Shown here: positions 2,436 through 58,027 of the stretch, one piece after another
How the letters are laid out: each line of letters begins with the position of its first letter
Numbering within the stretch: position 1 is the stretch's first letter
NCBI GenBank assembly: GCA_963514005.1
Contig: OY740783.1
Location: 32,922,001-32,986,000 of the forward strand
Length of the DNA stretch: 64,000 nucleotides
From: Raja brachyura
Taxonomy: Eukaryota
Direction of reading: 5' to 3'
The notes under the pieces: model-generated
What the model saw: only the letters and a program-made list of their open reading frames with translations
Told to the model about the DNA's origin: nothing
Databases searched by the model: none
Made by a program: the position numbers and the translations under genes

Positions 2436-4581
2436 AATAGTTCAGACAGCAGTCCAAGACCCCTCCAATAGACTCCATATGGAAGCAATCAGAAAAGAAT
2501 GGATGGAGCGAAACGAATTGCGCAATATCCACCATTTACAACTTGCAGAATTCACCAAGGGAAAATCTACAGCATTTATGTAATGTTTCAGATAAAAGTG
2601 TCTTCCCGAAAACTGAATACCAAATTTTGCTAGTCATTTAAAACAGAAGATTTGTAATAACATTCATAACAAACAGCAACAGCTATGGTTTTATAGGCAT
2701 CTAGGTTTTAAGAATATACCCATGATAATTGAGATTTAAACAGCACCAGAGCAAAATAAGGCTTCCACACAGAAAATAGGGTGATTTATCAGAATGATCA
2801 ATTTCTTAAGAGGTCAACATAAATTGTACAAGAGTAATCTTATTCCCCTCACAGTTGGCAGTAAACAGTGATACTAGCTAATAATGCAATTTACTGAGAT
2901 GCAAGGTATAATTTCTGAGTTGCAAATGTAAATTTAAGAACATTTCATAATGAAGTTTCAGGCTACCATCAACCAATACATTCCACTGATTCTAGGGCAA
3001 CAAGACCACATGGCACATTATTACTGGTGTCCTAGTCAAAGTTCTTAAGTCTGGGAAAGAGGTAATAGGTACAATTTGCAGAGTGTAAAATTTGAGTGCA
3101 CTTTAAACTGAAAAGATGACTGTGCTGAACTCCAAAGTGACAGGGACATATGAATAAGGCAGATGAAATTTAATGGAAAGAAGATGCAAAATTATAGATT
3201 TTTATAAGGAAAATGTGGAAGAAAATATAATACAATGGGCCAATCTTAAAGAATGAAGGTGGACCAGATTTAACCAAGTGATTAAGTACATAAATCTTTG
3301 AAGGGCCGGTTGAGAGAAAACAAATTGTCATGAGATTTAAAAGATTGAGGCAAGGAGCACAAAAACGAAATTGTGCAAGTTAACAGTATTCGAGCAGTTC
3401 AGGCACAAGTGGACTACAGCATCCAATTCTGGCATCCATGCCTTAGGAAGGATGAAAAGAGCTTAACAGGGGTTCAGAGCAGATATTTTGCAGGTTAATT
3501 TCAGGAATGAAAGACGTGCATTATGGAAAAGATTGAAGCTAGGATTGTTTCCCCAAAAGGAAAAGTGTGCAGCAGCATGGTCTCACATTTTCCCAGCTCA
3601 AAAAAAAGTCCTGTGCCCTTTTGCAAGAATTAGTTTGACTGTGGTGACAAACCCTGAGGAGAACAGAGACGCACTTTTAAAATAAAAGTAATATTCTCAG
3701 ATTTTAGATTAAATAAAACATAATGCCACTTGGATTTAGTTTCAAGATCCAAGAGCAACAGAGGACAGAGCTAGTGGAATTCTCCCAGTGTCCTGGGTTC
3801 AATCTTGACCTCCAGTGTGCTGTATGGAATGTGCATATTTTCTGTGACTGCTTGGGTTTCTTTCCACAATCCAAAATGTGTGGTGGATTGTTAGATTAGT
3901 TAGCCACTGGTGTATGGATTACCGGCAGAATCTGGAGTAGTTATGTAGGAAGGATAAAATGGGCTCCGGTAGGGTTGTTGCAAAAATGGATGTTTGATGC
4001 TATGCATGGAGTTATGGGTTGTATTTCTTTGACCCCGACTCTAACGCTGTGCATGAAATCGACTTGATTTATATTGAAACAAGAGGTTTTGGGTTAACTT
4101 GGTATGTTCAACAAGCAGTATCTGGAGTTGACTGTTTCCTGCCAACCTACTCTCACCAGCACACCACCAATTCTGCTGTCATCCACAAACTAACCAATCG
4201 GGCTACCTACATTCATTAAAATTACTGATATACATGAGGATCCAGCACCCATCCCTGTGGCACAGCACCGGTCAGCCTCCAATCTGAAAAAACTCTCACT
4301 TGCAACCTCTGCCTCCTTCCACCAAGCCAATTTTGTATCCATTTGGCTAGCTAATCCTCATTTTGGACATCAACCTTTTGGACAACCTACCACGTAAGAC
4401 CTTATCATAAGCCATGCTGAAATCAGTGTTGACAGTGTCTACGTCATTAGGAGCAAACCACCCACAACACTTCACTGGACTCAATTTTATGACAATAATA
4501 TCTCATTCCAGAATTGACTGCAAGAAAAATGTGCTTTTTAAATAAAAAGGTTGGTTTCTCAAAATTATAAGTTCTCCTTAC

Positions 4582-4629
4582 CCCTTGAAGTCCTTGGAAT
4601 TGTATTGTTGGTTGTGAGATAGAGGAATT
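4582..4629 (-). CDS. ELL2: ELL2 coding exon 2 (48 nt, NSSISQPTIQFQGLQG)
   Basis: Long T/C tract plus AG acceptor (4630-4652) and donor ggg|gtaagg. Phase 0/0, in frame with exon 1, and resembles ELL2 RPSIQFQGLHG. Confidence 0.92.
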
Positions 4630-7346
4630 CTGGGGGGGGGGGAAAAAAAAAAATCATATTTAGTTTCAATTAAACTAAAAGACACAATACAAAAACTCAG
4701 TAATGCTGCCCAATCTGAGTATTGCTGTAATTTGCGTTATTTTCATATTTCATGCATCTACAGTAATTTGCTTTCGCAAGTTAATTATTTAACGTTCAAC
4801 TTAAAAGATATTTTCTAAGTAGTTGCAGTTAAGTTCACATATTATAATCACAATTTGCATTTCTATGTATTTCTAGTCACATAATTAATATTGTCAATAT
4901 AAAGAGTAAAAGGCAAAAGTTAACAGCAAACCATATTATGATAGCAGGGTTGTGCATACGAGGATCCGTACAGGCAAAAATAATATTTTTGGAAGGGAGA
5001 TAAGAGTACTATATCTGAAACTGAACAAATTATCCAGTTGGCAAAGGCATCTTTTGCAATCCTATCTTTGCACAACAGTGAAATTTTATTAATTACGAAA
5101 CACATGTTCATTACTAATTTTTACTACCCCAAAATTTAGTAAGCACCAGCCTCTGCAAAGACCATAAATTCTTAACTGCATGCATGCAGTGTTGAATTGC
5201 CTGGTGCCCAAAGAACAATATTGCTTCTAATCCATAAACCAGAAACTAAACCTTCAACTGATATTCCCATCAAAGCATCAACTTTTTGCTGGTTATAAGG
5301 TATGGAAATGCCATGACCCCAGCTGTAATTTACCCAAATAGCCATCATACATATATAAACCCAAAAACATCATGCAATGATATATTGAACTCTGAAAGTT
5401 GACACAAAGCAAAAACAATTTATGGGAGCTGGAAACGGCAGATAAATCAAACTACTGCAAGATTACAATCAGACAACATTTATGGATGTAGAAGTATAGA
5501 ATTTCAAAATGAAGTTTCATCAGAATTAACTTGATGCAAGGTCATCAAACGAGCAGATTCTCCATCCACAAACGCCCTCTTACATGCTAAGTAATTGCAG
5601 TTTTTATTATAGCAGCATTGTTTATCCATGAGTGATACACATGTGCAGGTTACAAGGAGAGGTACCACATGCAATCAATCAGCAAAGCGTTTGATGAGAA
5701 TCTGCATTGGAGGCTGTTCCCCGTCCTGAGATTAAAGTATCAGAGATCAAAAATGGTCAATTGGATCCAAAATTGGCTTGGTGATATGAGGCACGGGGTT
5801 TGTGATATATAATAATAATTTGGAAGCGATTGTAGCAAGTTTGCAGATGGCATAGAAGTTGGTGGAGACATGGATAGTGAAATATTGTCCGAGGTTACAA
5901 CAGGATGTAGATCATCTGGAAAGTTGAAAAATGCATCAGCAAAATTAATTTAATATAGGTAGAACATACGCAGCAAATGTCAGGGTGCTAAATAATTTTT
6001 TTTTGTTAAATACATTTTATTGAGCCATCAAAAAGTGGGTACAGATTATGTTGCCATATCCAAGCTAATTTTTTCCAAATGTACATATCAAAACAGAACA
6101 TTTGAGTATTATACAAACAATATGGAGAGGCATGTTTATGAAAAACAACACCTCTAAACAAATAAATAAATAACGAGGGGGGGAATTTAAATAATAAATA
6201 CATAATTATAATGTGTCAATAGTCTTAAGTGCAAGAAATGACATAAATGGTCGCCAGATTTTATTAAATTGGTTGACTATCCTTTAGAACTAATCTTATT
6301 ATTTCTAAATGTAATGTCATGGTCAAGTCATTAAGCCACATTCTGTAATTGGGAGTTGTTTTTTTTCCATGACATGAGCAGTAGTTTCTTTGTAGTAATG
6401 AGACAGTAGGAGAGGAATTGTAGTTGAGCAGTCTTGATGTTTCAGATACCCCAAAGATGATTAATAAGGGCTCTGGGTTTAATGGGATGTTAAAAATGTC
6501 TTAGATATATTTAACACATTCTTAATATGTCTAATATATTAGACCAGAAAGGAGTTTAGGGCACGATACAAAGTTATGAAAAAGATTAGCATCTGAGGAG
6601 TGACATTTATCATAAGTAGGATAAACATTTGGATATATACTGTGTGTTTTTGCCTTGGAGTAGTGAAATCTATGTATAATTGTGAACTGTACGAGGCAGT
6701 GTCTAGCATTCTTTGAGCACCTATATATATATGTTTGAGGCTTTCCTCCCATACTTCATCTGATATTTGCACATTTATGTATTTTTCCCCAATTGATCTT
6801 ATACTTGCTAGAGGATGGATAGGTTATTGATAGAAGGATATCATACATACAGGAGATGAATTTATATGGTTTTTATATGGTGATGTTTTAAGGCAGACAT
6901 CTACTTGAGACTGCCTCTCAACTTCAAATCCCGATAGATGCTTTCATGTATAATCCCTGATTTGTAAGTATCTGAAGAAGTTACTATTTGGGAGTTCAAA
7001 TTTATTTCGTAGCTGTGTAAAGGTGGCAAACATACCATCAATATATAGGTCACTGACACTGTGGATTCCTAATTCACTCAACGTAGAGAAAGTCTTATCT
7101 AAAATAGATGGTTTGAATGTGGGGTTGTTTGTTATGGGCAAAGCGAGAGATATAGGTTTAAGTTCAAAATGTGTTCTGATTTGCTTCCACATACGTATCA
7201 AATTGTGTATAACAGGATTCAATCCATAATATGATTTATCAATTGAAGTAGGAGCTAGTAGGATGGTACCTATTGAGTATGGGTGACAATCTTCTTGTTC
7301 TATTTTTAGCCAATTCAGAGGGATGTTTGAGGTGTCAAGCCAGAAA

Positions 7347-7575
7347 ACTCAGAGAGTGGTAGCGGTGTGGAATGAGCTTCCAGTGGAAGTGGTGGCGGCA
7401 GGTTTGTTGGTATCATTTAAAAATAAATTGGATAGGCATATGGATGAGAAGGGTGTGGAGGGTTATGGTATGAGTGCAGGCAGGTGGACTAAGGGAAAAA
7501 AGTTGTTCGGCACGGACTTGAAGGGCCGAGATGGCCTGTTTCCGTGCTGTAATTGTTATATGGTTATATGGTTAT
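7347..7575 (+). mobile_element. CR1 3'-end fragment with (GGTTATAT)n tail, inserted in the L1
   Basis: Nearly identical to 16498-16727. Possible AAAAC duplication at the junctions. Confidence 0.9.
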
Positions 7576-8300
7576 AAAACCAAGGATGGCGGAGGCCCAG
7601 AAATATAATCTGACATTTGGAAGAGCAAGCCCTCCCTTAATTTTTGATTTTTCGAGCGGATTTTTGGTTATCCTACGAGTTTTGTAATTCCACAAGAAAG
7701 GTACTATCGAATTAATCTCTTAAAAAATGTTTTTATAAGAGAAATAGGAATGTTCCAAATTAGATATAGTAGCTGGGGTAAGAAGCTCATTTTAATGGTA
7801 TTCACTCTTCCTAGTAAGGAAATTGGAAGAGATTTCCAGAATTGGATTTTGCTTTTTTAGGTTTTTTTTAAATAAGGGAAAGAAATTGGTCTGTAGAAGG
7901 GAAGAGTAACGCTTTGTAACCTCAATCCCTAGATAGGTAAATTTATCTGTTGTTACTCTGAAAGGAAAATTCTCCAATGTATCTGAGGGGATGGTATGTA
8001 CTGGCAACAGTATACTTTAATCCCAGTTAATACTATAGCCTGAAAATGTACCAAACACGTTAATTTTGTCCAGTATCGCTGGAATAGTGGTTTGAGGTTC
8101 CATTATGTACAGGAGAAAATCATCTGCATACAAAGATATCTTATTTGTAGTCTCTTTCGTGTCGTAACCATGAATACAGGGATCTAATCGAAAACTCCGA
8201 GCAAGAGGTTCTATAGCAAGGGCGAATATTAATGCTGATAGGGGGCAGCCCTGTCTTGTTCCCCTGAACAAATTAAAGGGGGATGAGAGCGTCGGATTTT

Positions 8301-9158
8301 TACAGAAGCTTAATCCATTCCAAAAAGTTGTATCCAAAGTTAAATCTCTTGAGGAGCTCGAATAAGCATGGCCATTCAATCTGGTCAAATGCTTTTTCCG
8401 CGTCAAGCGTTATGGACTTATGGGTTGTATTTCTTTGACCCCGACTCTAACACTGCCCATGAAATCGACTTGATTGAAATTGAAACATAAGGTTTTGGGT
8501 TAACTTGGTGTGTTCAACAAGCAGTATCAGGAGTTGACCGTTTCCTGCTAACCTTCTCACACCAGCATACCACCATTTCTGGTGTCATCCACAAACTAAC
8601 CAATCGGGCTACCTACATTCATTAAAATTACTGATATACATGAGGATCCAGCACGCATCCCTGTAGCACAGCACCGGTCAGCCTCCAATCTGAAAAAACT
8701 CCCACTTGCAACCTCTGCCTGCTTCCACCAAGCCAATTTTGTATCCATTTGGCCAGCTAATCCTCATTGATCAACCTTTTGGACAACCACGTAAAACCTT
8801 ATCAAAGGCCTTGCTGAAATCAGTGTTGAGTGTCTACCACCCTGCTCTCGTCACTGGGAGCAAACCACCCACAATACTTCACTGGACTCAATTTTTTGAC
8901 AATAATATCTCATTCCAGAATTGACCACGAACTGCAAGAAAAATGTGTTTATTTTTAAATAAAAAGGTTGTTTTTTTTAAATTATGTTCTCCTTACCCCT
9001 TGAAATTGTATTGTTCGTAGAGAGATAGAGGAATTCTGGGGAATTGTACAGAAGCTTAATCCATTCCAAAAAGTTGTATCCAAAGTTAAATCTCTTGAGG
9101 AGCTCGAATAAGTATGGCCATTCAATCTGGTCAAATGCTTTTTCCGTGTCAAGCGTTA
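8301..9158. repeat. 112-bp direct repeats of L1 sequence (8301-8412 and 9047-9158) flanking the exon-2 duplicate
   Basis: tacagaagcttaatccattcc...tcaagcgtta occurs twice, with 2 mismatches seen. Confidence 0.92.
8412..9041 (-). pseudogene. Duplicated copy of 4006-4635 containing a second, 39-nt ELL2 exon 2 (8997-9035, NSSISLRTIQFQG)
   Basis: Colinear match to 4006-4635 by eye. AG and GTAAGG are retained, and there is a 9-nt in-frame deletion. Confidence 0.9.
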
Positions 9159-9420
9159 GTATAGCCAAGCCATTGTTTCCTTGTCTTTTTGTGTACAAGA
9201 TCTTAAACAGACATCTCAAGTTAATGGTGGATTGTCTATTAGGTATGAACCCAGTTTGATTTTGTGTATTAATTTACTTATTAATGGGCTTAATCTATTG
9301 GCTAAGATTTTAGCAAATATCTTGCCATCTGCATTTAGCAGTGAGATCGGACAGTATGAACTTACTTCTTGGGCATCTTTTCCTTTCTTATGAATCACTG
9401 TAATTGTTGCTTCAGTTAGT

Positions 9421-9678
9421 NNNNNNNNNNNNNNNNNNNNNNNNNNNNNNNNNNNNNNNNNNNNNNNNNNNNNNNNNNNNNNNNNNNNNNNNNNNNNNNN
9501 NNNNNNNNNNNNNNNNNNNNNNNNNNNNNNNNNNNNNNNNNNNNNNNNNNNNNNNNNNNNNNNNNNNNNNNNNNNNNNNNNNNNNNNNNNNNNNNNNNNN
9601 NNNNNNNNNNNNNNNNNNNNNNNNNNNNNNNNNNNNNNNNNNNNNNNNNNNNNNNNNNNNNNNNNNNNNNNNNNNNNN
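9421..9678. other. Assembly gap (258 N)
   Basis: Run of N inside L1 ORF2. Confidence 1.
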
Positions 9679-11880: not shown

Positions 11881-12274
11881 CGGGTTTCTATTGGCAGTTT
11901 ATTTTTGCTGTAACTGTCAGTCTGGCGCCCACGCTTGTGGATGCAACATTATTTTTGGCTGTCTTATTAGACTCTGATGACTCATTGTTTGTGTTCTAAA
12001 ATAAAAAACTTTTCGTACACCCTAAAGTCTCGACACGACAAAATGTGTTTTTTGTTGTGTCTGACCGTGTTCCGAGGAGGTGTTCCACATACTCCTAGGC
12101 TTTTTGGGGATCGGTGAATGAAGTTTGCTCGCCGTTGTAGGTCACCAGGAGTCTCGCCGGGTAGAGCAGGCCGTATCTGATGCTGGCTACCGTAACATTT
12201 CTCTGGTTTTAGTGAAGAGTTGGTGGGTTTGCGATGGTTGGTGGGCAGTCAGGGAAGATCTGGATCTTTTTGCC

Positions 12275-12529
12275 TTAAGAATAAGGGGCAAGCCATTTAG
12301 AACGGAGACGAGGAAACACTTTTTCCTCACAGAAAGTCGTGAGTCTGTGGAATTCTCTGCCTCAGGACAGGAGAACTAGATAGGGCTCTTAAAGATAGCG
12401 GAGTCAAGGGATATGGGGAGAAGGCAGGAACGGGGTACTGATTGGAGATGATCAACCATGATCACATTGAATGGCAGTGCTGGCTCGAAGGGCCGAATGG
12501 CCTACACCTGCACCTATTGTCTCTTGTCT
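12275..12529 (+). mobile_element. CR1/HER1-like 3' fragment inserted in L1 ORF1
   Basis: LRIRGKPFRTETRKHFF followed by the shared 3'UTR (gctcgaagggccgaatggcctac..cacctattgt). Confidence 0.85.
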
Positions 12530-13102
12530 TGGATATTTCTTGTCGATGACGCATTGCGTAGGATATCTTCCAGGGTATAGTAGTAATGTAGACATATTAC
12601 AAAGGGCCGGGGAAGTTCAGAGGGTGTGGGTCGCTGCTGGAGAGTGCTAAATAATTTTGATAACCAGATGGGTCTTGGTGTTATAATTCAGCTGTCTCTT
12701 CATTACCACATGTAGCAAGGTACAGTGAAATATTTTGTTGGCATATCGCTCAGCAAGACTATAACCATACACAAGGCACCATTACCTGGTTAGTACAGAA
12801 TGTTTTGAATAGCCCACTGAGTCTATATGCAAGCGGCACCATTTTAGTGGCACTTTACAGTCCCAGCTGCAGCTGGCCACAATGGCCCGCCTAATTCGCT
12901 GGATGTGACAAAGGTAGGTAGATAAAAGATGGCATTTGGCATACTTGCCTTCATTTGCAACACTGGTTAGATCTCACTTGGGAATATTGTAAGCAGTTCA
13001 GATCTCCACTTTTGTTTTCCCCAGTGGAATGGAACACTTGTAAGCTATTGGTAATTCTCACTGCACTGTAAAACAATCAATTAAGCAATAAGTAATAATC
13101 AT

Positions 13103-13317
13103 AGGCACAGAATGCTTGAGTAACTCAATGGGACAGACGGCATCTCTGGATAGAAGGAATGGGTGACTTTTCAGGTCGAGACCCTTCTTCAGACTCGGGT
13201 CACGACCCGAAATGTCACCCATTCCTTCTATCCAGAGATGCCGCCTATCCCGCTGAGTTACTCCAGCATTGTGTGTCTATCTTAGGTTTGAACCAGCATC
13301 TGCAGTTTCTTCCTACA
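13103..13317. repeat. Palindromic (head-to-head) Penelope-like repeat with hammerhead core
   Basis: 13103-13180 is the reverse complement of about 13197-13278. The minus strand 13195-13161 reads agtCTGAAGAagggtctcgacctGAAAagtcaccc. Confidence 0.7.
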
Positions 13318-14070: not shown

Positions 14071-14299
14071 CTAAGGCCACTGATCCTAATTGTTATTCCC
14101 TTATTATGTATCATGTATTGCCGTTCTGACCGGATAGTACGCAACAAAAGCTTTTCACTGCGACTTGGTACACTTAACAATAATAATCTAAACTAACCAA
14201 CTTCGTTTTTATTCTTTCTATATAAATTCTGCCTGATTTTCTAAATATAACCAATTTTTTTTCAAATGAATAAACTTGGTATAGCAGAAAGGAGACATT

Positions 14300-16727
14300 G
14301 GGCTGGATGGTTTGGAGTTTGTAAAGTGTGTGCAGGATAGTTTTTTGCAGCAATACATAGAGGTGCCTACTAGAGGAGGGGCATTGCTGGACCTCCTGTT
14401 AGGAAATGAGACGGGACAGGTGGCGGAGGTATGCGTAGGGGAGCACTTCGGGTCCAGTGATCACAATACCATTAGTTTCAATATAATTATGGAGAAGGAC
14501 AGAACTGGGCCTAGGGTTGAGATTTTTGATTGGAGAAAGGCTAACTTTAACGAGATGCGAGATGATTTAAAAGGAGTGAACTGGGACATTTTGTTTTATG
14601 GGAAAGATGTAGAGGAGAAATGGAGGACATTTAAAGGGGAAATATTAAGAGTACAAAATCTTTATGTTCCTGTTCGGTTGAAAGGAACCAGTAAAAATTG
14701 GAAAGAGCCCTGGTTTTCAAGGGAAATTGGACATCTTGTTCGGAAAAAGAGGGAGATCTACAATAATTATAAGCAGCATGAAGTAAATGAGGTGCTTGAG
14801 GAGTATAAGGAATGTAAAAAGAATCTTAAGAAAGAAATTAGAAAAGCTAAAAGAAGATATGAGGTTGCTTTGGCAAGTAAGGTGACAGTAAATCCAAAGG
14901 GTTTCTACAGCTATGTTAATAGCAAAAGGATAACAAGGGATAAAATTGGTCCATTGGAGAGACCGAGTGGACAGCTATCTGCAGAGCCAAAAGAGATGGG
15001 GGAGATATTGAACAATTTCTTTTCTTCGGTATTCACCAAGGAGAAGGATATTGAATTATGTGAGGTAAGGGAAACTAGTAGAGTAGCTATGGATACTATG
15101 AGTTTCAAAGTAAAAGAAGTACTGGCACTTTTGAAAAATATAAAAGTGGATAAGTCTCCAGGTCCTGACAGGATATTCCCTAGGACATTGAGGGAAGTTA
15201 GCGTAGAAATAGCCGGGGCTATGACAGAAATATTTCAAATGTCATTAGAAACTGGAATAGTCCCCGAGGATTGGCGTACTGCGCATGTTGTTCCATTGTT
15301 TAAAAAGGGTTCTAAAAGTAAACCTAGCAATTATAGACCGGTTAGTTTGACTTCAGTGGTGGGCAAATTAATGGAAAAGCTACTTAGAGATAATATATAT
15401 AAGTATCTGGATAAAGAGGGTCTAATTAGGAACAGTCAACATGGATTTATGCCTGGAAGGTCATGTTTGACTAATCTTCTTGAATTTTTTGAAGAGGTTA
15501 CTAGGGAAATTGACGAGGGTAAAGCAGTGGATGTTGTCTATATGGACTTCAGTAAGGCCTTTGACAAGGTTCCTCATGGAAGGTTGGTTAAGAAGGTTCA
15601 ACTGTTGGGTATAAATGCAGGACTAGCAAGATGGATTCAACAGTGGCTGAATGGGAGAAGCCAGAGGGTAATGGTGGATGGCTGTTTGTCGGGTTGGAGG
15701 CAGGTGACTAGTGGGGTGCCTCAGGGATCTGTGTTGGGTCCTTTGTTGTTTGTCATGTACATCAATGATCTGGATGAAGGGGTGGTAAATTGGATTAGTA
15801 AGTATGCAGATGATACCAAGATAGGGGGTGGTGTGGATAATGAAGAGGATTTCCAAAGTCTGCAGAGTGATTTAGGCCAGTTGGAAAAATGGGCTGAAAG
15901 ATGGCAGATGGAGTTTAATGCTGATAAATGTGAGGTGCTACACCTTGGCAGGACAAATCAAAATAGGACGTACATGGTAAACGGTAGGGAATTGAAGAAT
16001 ACAGTTGAACAGAGGGATCTGGGAATAACCGTGCATAGTTCCTTGAAGGTAGAATCTCATATAGATAGGGTGGTAAAGAAAGCTTTTGGTATGCTAGCCT
16101 TTATAAATCAGAGCATTGAGTATAGAAGCTGGGATGTAATGTTAAAATTGTACAAGGCGTTGGTGAGACCAAATCTGGAGTATGGTGTACAATTTTGGTC
16201 GCCCAATTACAGGAAGGATGTCAACAAAATAGAGAGGGTACAGAGGAGATTTACTAGAATGTTGCCTGGGTTTCAACAGCTAAGTTACAGAGATAGGTTG
16301 AATAAGTTAGGTCTTTATTCTCTGGAGCGCAGAAGGTTAAGGGGGGACTTGATAGAGGTCTTTAAAATGATGAGAGGGATAGACAGAGTTAATGTGGACA
16401 AGCTTTTCCCTTTGAGAATAGGGAAGATTCAAACAAGGGGACATGACTTTAGAATTAAGGGACAGAGGTTTAGGGGTAACATGAGGGGGAACTTCTTTAC
16501 TCAGAGAGTGGTAGCGGTGTGGAATGAGCTTCCAGTGGAAGTGGTGGCGGCAGGTTCGTTGGTATCATTTAAAAATAAATTGGATAGGCATATGGATGAG
16601 AAGGGTATGGAGGGTTATGGTATGAGTGCAGGCAGGTGGGACTAAGGGAAAAAAGTTGTTCGGCACGGACTTGAAGGGCCGAGATGGCCTGTTTCCGTGC
16701 TGTAATTGTTATATGGTTATATGGTTA
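14300..16727 (+). mobile_element. 5'-truncated CR1 LINE with uninterrupted 777-aa ORF2 (end of endonuclease plus RT), antisense to ELL2
   Basis: ORF 14312-16645 with [33 protein letters not shown] and KYADD. 3'UTR and (GGTTATAT)n tail. Confidence 0.97.
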
Positions 16728-29189: not shown

Positions 29190-29324
29190 CTTTGCATTTT
29201 GAAAGGCTTCCAGCGCTCGGAAGGCTGTCTCTGTCAATTTAACATGAAATACGGTGATTTTGCCGGGATTCGCTTTCCCACACGACAGCCCGTAACGTTG
29301 ATCCACAGCGAGCGCTGCCGCCAT
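29190..29324 (-). CDS. ELL2: ELL2 coding exon 1 (45 codons, [45 protein letters not shown])
   Basis: Hand translation of the minus strand. Strong Kozak context ccaagATGg and a phase-0 GT donor (aag|gtgcgg). Matches the recalled ELL2 N-terminus (QRYGLSCG...[17 protein letters not shown]) better than ELL (VKLTDSALRAFE). Confidence 0.93.
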
Positions 29325-41727: not shown

Positions 41728-42102
41728 TTACAAAATTCTTAAGGGGTTGGACAGGCTAGATGCAGGACGATTGTTCCCGATGTTGGGGAGGTCCAGAACA
41801 AGGGGTCACAGTTTAAGGATAAGGGGGAATTCCTTTAGGACTGAGATGAGGAAAACATTTTTCACACAGAGAGTGGTGAGTCTCTGGAATTCTCTGCCAC
41901 AGAAGGTAGTTGACGCCAGTTCATTGGCTATATTTAAGAGGGAGTTAGATGTGGCCCTTGTGGCTAAAGGGATCAGGGGGTATGGAGAGAAGGCAGGTTC
42001 AGGATACTGAGTGGAATGATCAGCCATGTTCATATTGAATGGCGGCGCAGGCTCGAAGGGCTGAATGGCCTACTCCTGCACCTATTTTCTACGTTTCTAT
42101 GT
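41728..42102 (+). mobile_element. CR1 3' fragment nested in Tx1
   Basis: [17 protein letters not shown], the 3'UTR and a (TTTCTATG)-type tail. Confidence 0.9.
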
Positions 42103-43754
42103 GCAGGACAGACGGGTGGATGCCTGCCTAGTCAGCTTGGACCAGGAGAAGGCCTTCGACAGGATATCGCACACATAAATGAGGGACGTGCTCTCCAAAA
42201 ATTTGGGGAGGGAATCAGAAATTGGATCAAACTGCTCTACACCGATATCTGTAGTGCAGTACAAATCAATGGGTGGGAATCAGACAGCTTCCCCGTCAGG
42301 TCTGGAGTCAGGCAGGGTTGTCCTCTCTCCCCTGTCTTGTTCATCTGTTGTATTGAACCTTTTGCCGAGTCCATCAGGAAGGACGCGAGCATAAGAGGAG
42401 TGACATTGCCAGGCAGTGGGGGCACTCAGTTCAAAACCTCCCTGTACATGGATGATGTCGCTGTGTTCTGCTCGGATCTAGGGTCGGTCCGCAGATTGAT
42501 CAGCATCTGCGACCAGTTTGAGTCGGCCACGGGAGCCAGGGTGAACAGCAGGAAGAGCGATGCCCCGCTCTTCGGCAACTGGCCCAACTGATCTTCCGTC
42601 CCCTTCACCATCAAGCCTGACTTCTTGAAGATGCTGGGGATCTGGTTTGGGAGGGCTGAGTCATGTGACAAGAATTGGCTGGAACAGATAGCCAAGGTGG
42701 GGAAGAAGTTGGAGCTGTGGAAGCAACGCTCCCTCTCCATAACGGGGAAAAATGTGGTCATCAGGTGTGAGATCAGGTATGAGATGCTCTCGGGGCTGCT
42801 GTACTTGGCGCAAGTGTGGCCTGTCCCTCCCTCCGATGCCACAGGGATCAGCCGGGCTGTCTTCCAGTTCATCTGGGTGCGACGGGCCACAATGCACAAG
42901 TCGGCAGACAAAGGGGGTAAATGCGTGCCCAACGTCGCCCTCACCCTGATGGCCACCTTCGTGTGTGGCTGCAACAGGCGGAGCGTAGAGCCAAGGCACG
43001 TGGGCACCAAGTGTTACTACCTGCTGAGGTTCTACCTCTCCCCGGTGTTGCGAAGGATGGGCCTGGCGCAGATGCTATGCAATGTGCCAGTCAGCTGGAC
43101 ATTGCCGCCCTATCTGTCGTTTGTGGAAAGGTTCTTCCGGACCAACACCTTTGACCACAACTCCATCGGGCAGCGGTCAACACGGCAGGGAAAGGACTCG
43201 TTGGATCTGGTGGAGTGGTTCCCAGAGCAGACTGCCCAGCTTGTCTGGCAAAATGCCTCATCGCCAGAACTCACCAACAAGCACCAAGACCTGGCTTGGC
43301 TGGCGGTGAGGGGAGCCCTCCCAGTCAGATCATTCCTGCACCTTCGGAATTTCACTACCAGCGCACGCTGCCCTCGGGACGGCTGCTATGGAGAGGAGAC
43401 GGTTGCCAACCTCTTTGCAGAGTGTGGATTTGCAAAGAGAGTCTGAAGAGGTCTGCAAGGATCCCTGTCACGGTTTATTCCGAACAGCTCCGTCACAGAG
43501 GACTCTGATTTACGGACTGTTCCCAGGGACGCATTCAGAGACTGACATCAAGTGCTGCTGGAAGGTCATCAACTCGGTGAAAGACGCTCCGTGGCCTGCC
43601 CGAACGCTGTTCACCACCCAGCAGAGCAAGATGTCTGTCGGGGAATGTTGCCGACTGGCCCGCTGCAAACTGCAGGAGTATGTGCTGAGGGATGTACTGA
43701 AGCTTGGTGCAGCCAATGCCAAGGCTCGGTGGGGGAGGACCACAGTCTAGGGTC

Positions 43755-56877: not shown

Positions 56878-57956
56878 TCTATATTACTAAAGGTCTGATC
56901 TTGACCACTTCCTGTTGTTCTGTACATTGATTTTAGAAAAAACGCTGCCACTTACGGCTGTGATTTTTGGCCATCTTACTCGGAGTCCCCCTCCAATGCG
57001 CAGGACAAGAGGATTTTTCCCATCAATGAAAAATAAAAGAGTTATTAGTGTTTAAAAAATGTTGAGATTCTCTCTCCTGAAGGCCACGCCCCTTCCAGAG
57101 GGACTATAAAACCCGGAAGTGTTGAGTGCCTCAGTCAGTCTTTGCAAGATGGGGGAGCGAGAGGGTCACGTCTCTCAGTCTGAGCTGTGAATAACACTGA
57201 ACACATGTCTACTAAACTGTGAGTGTTTTTACTGACCTGTCAGTGCATTTAATGTGGTTTGAAAATATGGTTTGGAAATGCTAAAGCTGTGTTGCCTTTG
57301 GTTTGGAAATGTTAATGCTGTGTTACCTTTGGTTTGGAAATGCTAAAGCTGTGTTGCCTTTGGTTTGGAAATGCTAAAGCTGTGTTGCCTTTAGTTTGGA
57401 ATTGCTAAAGCTGTGATGTCTTTCGTTTGGAAATGCTAAAGCTGTGTTGCCTTTGGTTTGGAAATGCTAAAGCTGTGTTGCCTTTGGTTTGGAAATGCTA
57501 AAGCTGTGTTGCCTTTGGTTTGGAAATGCTAAAGCTGTCTTGCCGAAGTGTGGGCGTGGCTCAGTCTCTGCAAGATGGAGGAGGGAGAGGTCACGACTCT
57601 CTGTCTTTAGTGGCCTTGCACCCTGCTTGAAATGGAATTTCAAGAAATAGCCGTGAGTTAACTGCCAGCCCACCAGCCGTGAGTCAACTTCCAGCCCACC
57701 AGCCATGAGTGAGCTGCCAGCACAACAGGCTTGAGTGACTGAGCCGCCAGCCCAAGAATCCATTCGGCCCACAATGTCCATACTAGTCCTCTGGAAACCA
57801 GTCCCTTCAGCCCACAACACCCATACAAGTGCTCCAGAAAGCCCCCCCACCCCCCACTGGCCACCAATATTGGAATTGGTGGAGAGGTGGAATACTGCGT
57901 TGGGGGACCAGCTCTCCCGTGTGATGCTGGGACCCAACGGGTCCCACTTAATCTAG
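56878..57956 (+). mobile_element. Non-autonomous Helitron (about 1.08 kb)
   Basis: 5' A|TCTATATTACTAAA. 3' hairpin TGGGACCC-aac-GGGTCCCA (57928-57946) then CTAG|T (57953-57957). No TSD. Confidence 0.88.
57269..57544. repeat. 31-bp minisatellite (GGTTTGGAAATGCTAAAGCTGTGTTGCCTTT), about 9 units, inside the Helitron
   Basis: Unit starts at 57269, 57300, 57331 ... 57517. Confidence 0.95.
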
Positions 57957-57968
57957 TATATGTATGTA

Positions 57969-58027
<59 letters not shown>
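57957..58027. repeat. (TA)n microsatellite at the Helitron 3' junction
   Basis: Direct reading. Confidence 0.95.

Follow-up and report, generated by a model that had tools for sequence, protein, structure and literature searches.

An old duplicate of ELL2 exon 2 lies within an L1 in ELL2 intron 1 and may record iterative templated break repair

Exon 2 of the ELL2 gene occurs twice in the 64,000-nt stretch of DNA analysed here (the window), and the second occurrence, which is a real duplicate, lies in intron 1 within an L1 element, between two copies of a short L1 sequence. We propose, with a probability of about 0.5, that the sequence arrangement arose from a single break in the already existing L1 that was repaired by microhomology-primed, iterative templated synthesis. 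The copied exon has kept its reading frame and its core splice signals, but on sequence grounds it is likely an unused, neutrally decaying pseudoexon. Below, we describe the structure and its host element, its presence and age in related sequence data, the explanations that can be offered for its origin, and the probable fate of the exon.

The assignment of the surrounding gene to ELL2, made in an earlier note on this DNA, holds: exon 1 has its best match, at 96%, in ELL2 of Mobula birostris, and the top matches come from rays and sharks. Coding exon 1 (29190-29324, minus strand) comprises 45 codons and ends in the donor AAG/GTGCGG, and exon 2 (4582-4629, minus strand) is a 48-nt exon of phase 0/0 with a T11C11AG acceptor and a GGG/GTAAGG donor. 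The exon 2 peptide is found exactly in 17 of the 32 ELL2 proteins compared, and the exon 1 peptide of the window begins none of the 38 proteins compared, Leucoraja and Amblyraja included; a batoid origin of the window is likely, and the more specific 'skate' of the earlier note is not confirmed. Exon 2 is missing from annotated ELL2 isoforms of Amblyraja, Chiloscyllium and a frog (P0024, P0005 and P0011), and it may be a conserved cassette exon across species. The Pfam ELL domain extends over 15-294, human ELL2 is present in PDB 7OKX/7OKY, and PMC10716050 describes ELL2-EAF1 dimerization domains that touch the Pol II lobe. Separately, the N-terminal alanine run of batoid ELL2 ranges from 3 to 10 residues across records (P0002, P0022 and P0027-P0035), with 3 residues in the window.

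Self-comparison of the window (BLAST E 0.0) aligns 4006-4635 with 8412-9041 in the same orientation at a start-to-start spacing of 4406, which bears out the earlier observation that about 630 bp had been duplicated roughly 4.4 kb away. The source (4006-4635, plus strand) takes in exon 2 together with 6 nt from the end of intron 1 and ~576 nt from the start of intron 2. It contains an old CR1-type fragment at about 4137-4449, which blastn matches at 60-64% to further CR1 copies in the window. The template was copied, and the donor is intact. The copy (8412-9041, plus strand) is also found in contigs of organisms A, B and C. Global alignment of source and copy yields 569 matches and 39 substitutions over 608 aligned bases (6.4%), together with 8 indels. 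On either side of the copy lies the same stretch of L1 ORF2, seen in the self-comparison as 8294-8412 repeated at 9040-9158. The 112-bp direct repeats proposed earlier were recovered by global alignment, with 110 of 112 positions identical between 8301-8412 and 9047-9158, and their extent could be refined: the visible repeat measures 115 bp with 3 mismatches (8298-8412 on the left and 9044-9158 on the right, plus strand). Since the L1 ORF2 reading extends in the right copy to about 9038, as IKLLYNSP like that of L1 homologs, the original repeat would have been about 121 bp (right copy 9038-9158, plus strand). The path thus returns to the L1 with a host segment of 115-121 bp rereplicated. The first 4 nt of the right repeat (GGGG, 9038-9041) are common to the end of the copy and constitute the microhomology at this junction.

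The host L1 (6000-12643, minus strand) is sense to ELL2, 5'-truncated and interrupted by stops and frameshifts, with its poly(A) end near 6000. Two of its pieces match Pfam RVT_1, full-length EN-RT homologs are colinear with it in tblastn between 10806 and about 6233, there is a T run beginning near 6000, and the element is bounded by a target-site duplication that agrees at 15 of 15 positions (5985-5999 and 12644-12658, plus strand) and is TTTT-ended, as expected. Taken together, the RVT_1 matches, EN-RT homology, T run and perfect target-site duplication are those of a normal 5'-truncated L1 insertion, and we read the element as such. From its motifs, we take the reading at 12098-12687 to be ORF1-like; this piece had no L1 match in Pfam.

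The copy and an N gap interrupt the element, as do two CR1 fragments and one further insertion that arrived later. A young CR1-type 3' fragment (7347-7574, plus strand) is 98.7% identical to 16499-16727 and is absent from other L1 copies, in which 7346 connects with 7585; the fragment, taken as 7347-7584, is without a clear target-site duplication, and other L1 copies hold 11 different letters between 7346 and 7585. The second CR1 fragment was located by self-comparison at about 12275-12540. The assembly gap consists of 258 N at 9421-9678, inside the L1 and 262 bp to the right of the structure. A GC-rich insertion from 10818 to about 11870 separates the ORF1-like from the endonuclease sequence and replaces the first ~108 ORF2 codons. 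This insertion presumably carries Ty3/Gypsy-like RT motifs on the plus strand, and the Gypsy-like piece from 10818 had no match in Pfam. Apart from the 26-nt gap described below, one gap of at least 20 nt relative to homologs was seen in the L1, at about 6360-6490; it amounts to 7-9 residues in 6 of 6 homologs aligned.

Other repeats in the window are recorded here as observations in their own right. An open CR1-type ORF of 786 codons occupies 14285-16642 (plus strand) in ELL2 intron 1, and its family has possibly been active recently, with very high contig depth at the 3' end in all four runs. Upstream of ELL2, a second non-LTR element (41968-43747, plus strand) carries long open frames of L1/Tx1 RT type. 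Near-palindromic self-matches are present at 13101-13280 (85% over 182 bp), where they represent two inverted copies of a short dispersed repeat, and at 57957-58027 (89% over 70 bp), and a tandem array with a period near 31 bp and units 93-97% alike spans 57268-57544.

A third junction, overlooked in the earlier note, is located at the outer edge of the left repeat (8299-8302, minus strand), where 26 nt of L1 ORF2 are missing. The G.RQG motif is present in 24 of 32 L1 ORF2 homologs, all 24 of which have 21 residues between LLY and G; the spacing expected from LL to G is therefore 66 nt, against 40 nt in the window. The tblastn alignment of L1 homologs likewise skips residues 639-648. Within this 26-nt gap falls the L1 position of the right junction, an overlap with a chance of about 0.8% per deletion, or 1.7% for two, in a post hoc calculation, and about 10 of the 26 nt survive on the right side. 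Homology amounts to 4 nt (GGGG) at the right junction, about 1 nt at the left and a putative 4 nt at the third. The microhomology at the right junction would have been GGGGAA if the source G run was then four long, and that at the third junction would require a presumed Thr codon and one later substitution; L1 family copies were available as contig counts.

The structure can be followed in sequence data from other organisms. The runs listed as matching the window number 20, from 10 studies, with best shares of 0.65 for organism A, 0.52 for B, 0.48 for C and 0.12-0.13 for E-I; no RNA data set figures among them, which bears on expression in neither direction; contigs of four runs (organisms A, B, C and D) were aligned to the window, and E-I were left out. 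A contig of organism A (X1), possibly the organism from which the window itself comes, crosses the right junction with 0 differences. In organism B (X3, study P2), the left junction is bridged over 8369-8612 with 1 difference and the right junction over 8739-9073 with 5 differences and no gap, and in organism C (X4, study P3) copy-specific sequence at 8422-8636 and the source are each recovered with 1 difference. Among the contigs listed for the four runs, none extends across the whole structure. The earlier note had raised the concern of an assembly artefact, and for the junctions this is refuted by the bridging contigs of organism B and the copy-specific sequence of C. An artefact arising near the 258-N gap is thus scarcely credible, even with the whole structure spanned by none of the contigs listed: the copy differs from its source by 6.4% and 8 indels, and another organism and study bridge the junctions, with a copy-specific contig in a third. 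Raw long-read error was rejected as the origin of this divergence, as copy-specific contigs match with 0-1 differences.

Over the listed pieces, divergence from the window is 0.7% for B, 0.9% for C and 5.0% for D, compared with 6.4% between source and copy. Judged by these sequence comparisons, the duplication is far older than the split among A, B and C and lies near the split from D. The gap-free contig of organism B across 8739-9073 indicates that the 9-nt deletion in the copied exon predates the A/B split. In organism D, one contig follows the source from 5040 to 4540, across exon 2, and continues on the copy at 8956-8798 (16 differences, 2 gap letters). By this fit to the copy, the stretches of 12, 7 and 3 nt that the source now lacks belong to the ancestral sequence, and it was the source that lost them. 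With the CR1 copies of the window, 7 of the 39 substitutions could be polarised, 4 to the copy and 3 to the source, and both have drifted. Over 4038-4362, the source differs from D by 13 and from the copy by 21. A simple clock would not produce this pattern; the duplication is older than the split from D, or else the copy evolved faster. In organism D, none of the pieces listed covers 8957-9041 and a 725-nt contig aligns only at 5914-5530, uncovered stretches being no sign that D lacks the copy or the L1. Across the runs, 41,046 pieces lie outside those listed. The joint of the L1 before insertion (8412 to 9159) was not found among the 15 listed of 31 joints, and no intermediate allele was seen.

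The relative ages of the parts were compared by counting differences. The flanking repeats differ at 3 of 115 positions and source and copy at 39 of 608 (Fisher p 0.13, or 0.07 for the 112-bp repeat), so that the visible repeat and the long pair are compatible in age. The L1 differs from four non-overlapping high-depth family contigs at 34 of 769 positions (4.4%), and the duplicated copies differ at 42 of 723 (2.9% per lineage), giving a one-sided p of 0.045 for an older L1. This L1 count omits overlapping family pieces (1/151, 12/156 and 4/217), and also pieces from other copies at single depth (21/202, 17/231 and 16/136). The L1 is perhaps older than the copy, but the difference in age is weak, and the parent is not necessarily among the family contigs.

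The spectrum of changes between source and copy is unusual. Complement-type changes (A<->T, C<->G) account for 19 of the 39 substitutions; in 8 pairs of CR1 copies from the window, they make up 107 of 559 (19%; p 6e-5 for the comparison). The changes show no strand bias, with A<->T split 6 and 6 by direction and C<->G 4 and 3, and their clustering is borderline (p 0.06-0.08). An error burst at birth is unsupported as the cause, given these balanced directions, the clustering values and the polarised counts of 4 versus 3 (7 of 39 callable).

Of the possible origins of the structure, a single break-repair event is favoured by the coincidence of the 26-nt gap with the right-junction position. The break would have occurred inside L1 ORF2 at the position of the gap. 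The left end would then anneal by short microhomology to the other end and copy about 115 nt, producing the left repeat, after which the strand would slip off and find a new priming site at 4006, 4.4 kb away, where about 1 nt is homologous. From there, about 626 nt would be copied through intron 2 and exon 2, until GGGG (up to GGGGAA) paired with the outermost bases of the right end and completed the repair, with about 16 nt of target lost. The exon would owe its inclusion to its polypyrimidine tract, whose G/A run gave the closing microhomology. The insert is partly flank-templated, the left repeat being the flank copy, and is accompanied by a small target deletion, as in MMEJ. In addition, the inner edges of the repeats have no poly(A) or TTTT end, which argues against a retrotransposed insert. 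The geometry is that of the iterative annealing-extension model by which templated insertions are explained in PMC12426944, where Pol-theta inserts are generally <25 bp. The segments of 115 and 626 nt exceed this usual size, so that a more processive polymerase would be needed, and the left junction with only about 1 nt of homology also speaks against break repair. Further points against it are the conjectural microhomology at the third junction, the weak age gap between L1 and copy, the lower divergence of the repeats than of source and copy, the closeness of organism D to the source over 4038-4362 and the unusual substitution spectrum. The earlier proposal of a template-switch or repair-type insertion nevertheless stands on the direct copy, the intact donor, the absence of poly(A) and the junction microhomology.

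Several other routes to the structure have to be weighed against break repair. A replication switch with two jumps (a local cycle) would yield exactly the order repeat, copy, repeat in direct orientation, and so would a tandem duplication of 4006-8412 (4.4 kb) whose second unit then lost 3.66 kb. PMC7025897 counts both tandem duplications and local n-jumps among the common classes, and the L1 carries at least one other deletion of similar size. Such a history treats the 26-nt deletion as unrelated and later, which must then hit the junction position by chance (about 1-2%, post hoc), and we regard it as possible but rather unlikely. A switch during integration of the L1 itself is somewhat more doubtful. 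In that case, the growing cDNA would have switched from the L1 RNA to a nearby template, either DNA or nascent ELL2 pre-mRNA, and returned about 121 nt behind. Both L1 and copy are indeed ELL2-sense, as RT switching needs (PMC13174262 and PMC11702581), the distance between the end of the source and the target site of the L1 is 1350 bp, the ages are close (4.4% for the L1 and 2.9% for the copy), and templated non-L1 pieces in new L1s are known, with 22 cases in bioRxiv 10.1101/2024.08.27.596794 and 3 in PMC11702581. However, according to the bioRxiv report the known templates are typically <250 bp and lie no more than 15 bp from the site, a size and distance from which 630 bp taken from 1350 bp away departs. 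A switch of this kind also leaves the return inside the 26-nt gap without explanation, the copy continues into intron 1 (CTGGGG) rather than exon 1, with no sign of spliced RNA, and the L1 is somewhat older (p 0.045).

The boldest form of an L1-based origin, in which the L1 reverse transcriptase jumped to the nascent ELL2 transcript and duplicated a host exon in cis with a new acceptor, now spliced in some tissues to give an isoform with an altered Pol II/EAF-binding domain, is very improbable. Two further candidates were rejected. A class 1 TSIP, derived from RNA trans-mobilised by L1, does not fit, since there is no A or T run at the ends of the copy and, in place of a TTTT/A site with target-site duplication, the inner edge of the left repeat ends in GCGTTA. 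A class 2 TSIP does not fit the 115-bp flanking duplication, the donor 4.4 kb away and the possession of the structure by three organisms.

The copied exon (8997-9035, minus strand) is 39 nt long and in frame, with 3 substitutions and a 9-nt deletion relative to exon 2; it reads NSSISLRTIQFQG, and exon 2 at 4582-4629 reads NSSISQPTIQFQGLQG. As reported earlier, it retains its AG (as CAG) and the donor GGG/GTAAGGAG, is of phase 0/0 after the 9-nt deletion and is free of stops. The related statement that its polypyrimidine tract was mostly lost is correct for the original tract, yet L1 sequence has taken its place: the acceptor now consists of CCCCAG plus L1 sequence, with pyrimidines at 13 of 18 positions from -20 to -3, compared with 18 of 18 for exon 2. 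In a crude scan of the 24.6-kb intron 1, it was the sole in-frame, stop-free site among 9 acceptor/donor pairs, so the claim that a frame-compatible extra exon exists in intron 1 is upheld.

Survival of the splice signals is expected by chance: at the measured divergence (3.2% per lineage), the 8 splice-site letters would survive with a probability of 0.77. The 9-nt deletion is flanked by CAAGG repeats with a spacing of 9 nt, and no selection is needed to account for its in-frame length. The copied exon has 2 amino-acid changes, compared with a neutral expectation of 0.96 (P(>=2) 0.25, of low power on 39 nt). The copy has lost P59, which does not vary in the alignment of 18 ELL/ELL2 proteins, to a replacement, and a deletion has removed 3 residues from IQFQGLQG, in which I61, F63, G65, Q67 and G68 are invariant. 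Thus purifying selection on the peptide is not apparent over these 39 nt, a length of low power. In a comparison that has no bearing on use, the copied-exon peptide is found in none of 32 ELL2 proteins, none of which begins with the exon 1 of the window (15 of the 32 main-cluster members are listed). Neutral or faster change, loss of conserved residues and splice letters expected by chance are why we read the copied exon as likely an unused, neutrally decaying pseudoexon, which would be skipped in nearly all transcripts. Rare inclusion, if any, would add 13 residues before, or in place of, a conserved segment of the ELL domain, and replacement of exon 2 by the copied exon would likely damage that domain.

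The opposite reading, in which the copy serves as an alternatively used ELL2 exon, in tandem with or instead of exon 2, and thereby creates a lineage-specific variant of the ELL domain, appears improbable from the same sequence features. It can point to the intact AG, donor, phase and open frame, to the uniqueness of the site among the 9 scanned, to the retention of the copy with its 9-nt deletion in organisms A and B, and to the cassette status of exon 2 in annotated isoforms of other species, which makes some inclusion possible; alternative exons are also known to arise by exon duplication (PMC5224494). Against these stand the neutral or faster change with loss of invariant residues, the chance survival of the splice letters together with the CAAGG repeats that account for the in-frame length, and the weaker acceptor of a 39-nt exon that has to compete against an 18/18 tract. 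Among the papers listed for ELL2 exon 2 skipping and isoforms, no title concerns an exon 2 duplicate in fishes, most subscription papers lying outside the search. Overall, the earlier interpretation is sustained in its repair-type insertion and frame-compatible exon, while use of the exon is without indication and the third junction had gone unseen.

If the break-repair reading is correct, iterative templated break repair has left a clean footprint that can be dated in the germline of a cartilaginous fish, which is useful as a case rather than a new principle, and the locus offers a small example of how repair can make a frame-compatible exon duplicate that then decays. Were the exon spliced, it would bring a 13-residue change in the N-terminal ELL domain; had the copy been born with the L1, it would represent a retrotransposon duplicating an exon via its own host transcript.

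The event belongs to an already known kind, as comparison with five described systems illustrates. It resembles the cycles and local n-jumps of PMC7025897 in that the donor is intact, an extra copy is inserted and the host is rereplicated on both sides of the insert, and it differs from them as an old germline event common to several organisms, with a template from the same gene 4.4 kb away and a third junction. With MMEJ and Pol theta (PMC12426944), it would share a first round that uses the other end of the break as template, repeated rounds of priming, short microhomology and a small deletion, although its segments of 115 and 626 nt contrast with the inserts of generally <25 bp described there. 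Class 2 TSIPs (PMC5110952) are likewise intronic germline patches of hundreds of bases with microhomology, a microdeletion and no poly(A); here the donor is local, the flanking duplication measures 115 bp, and the event is held by three organisms rather than being a polymorphism. The templated insertions in new L1s (bioRxiv 10.1101/2024.08.27.596794 and PMC11702581) also embed non-L1 DNA from near the site in an L1, whereas the insert described here is 630 bp long, comes from 1.35 kb from the target, is internal, and returns to the L1 about 121 nt back. Finally, the mutually exclusive exons Ab/3 of U2AF1 (PMC5224494) parallel the copied exon in having a homologous exon in the adjacent intron with the same phase and an altered polypyrimidine tract, but in ELL2 the upstream intron is unduplicated, the acceptor is built from L1 sequence, and the copied exon carries no sign of purifying selection.
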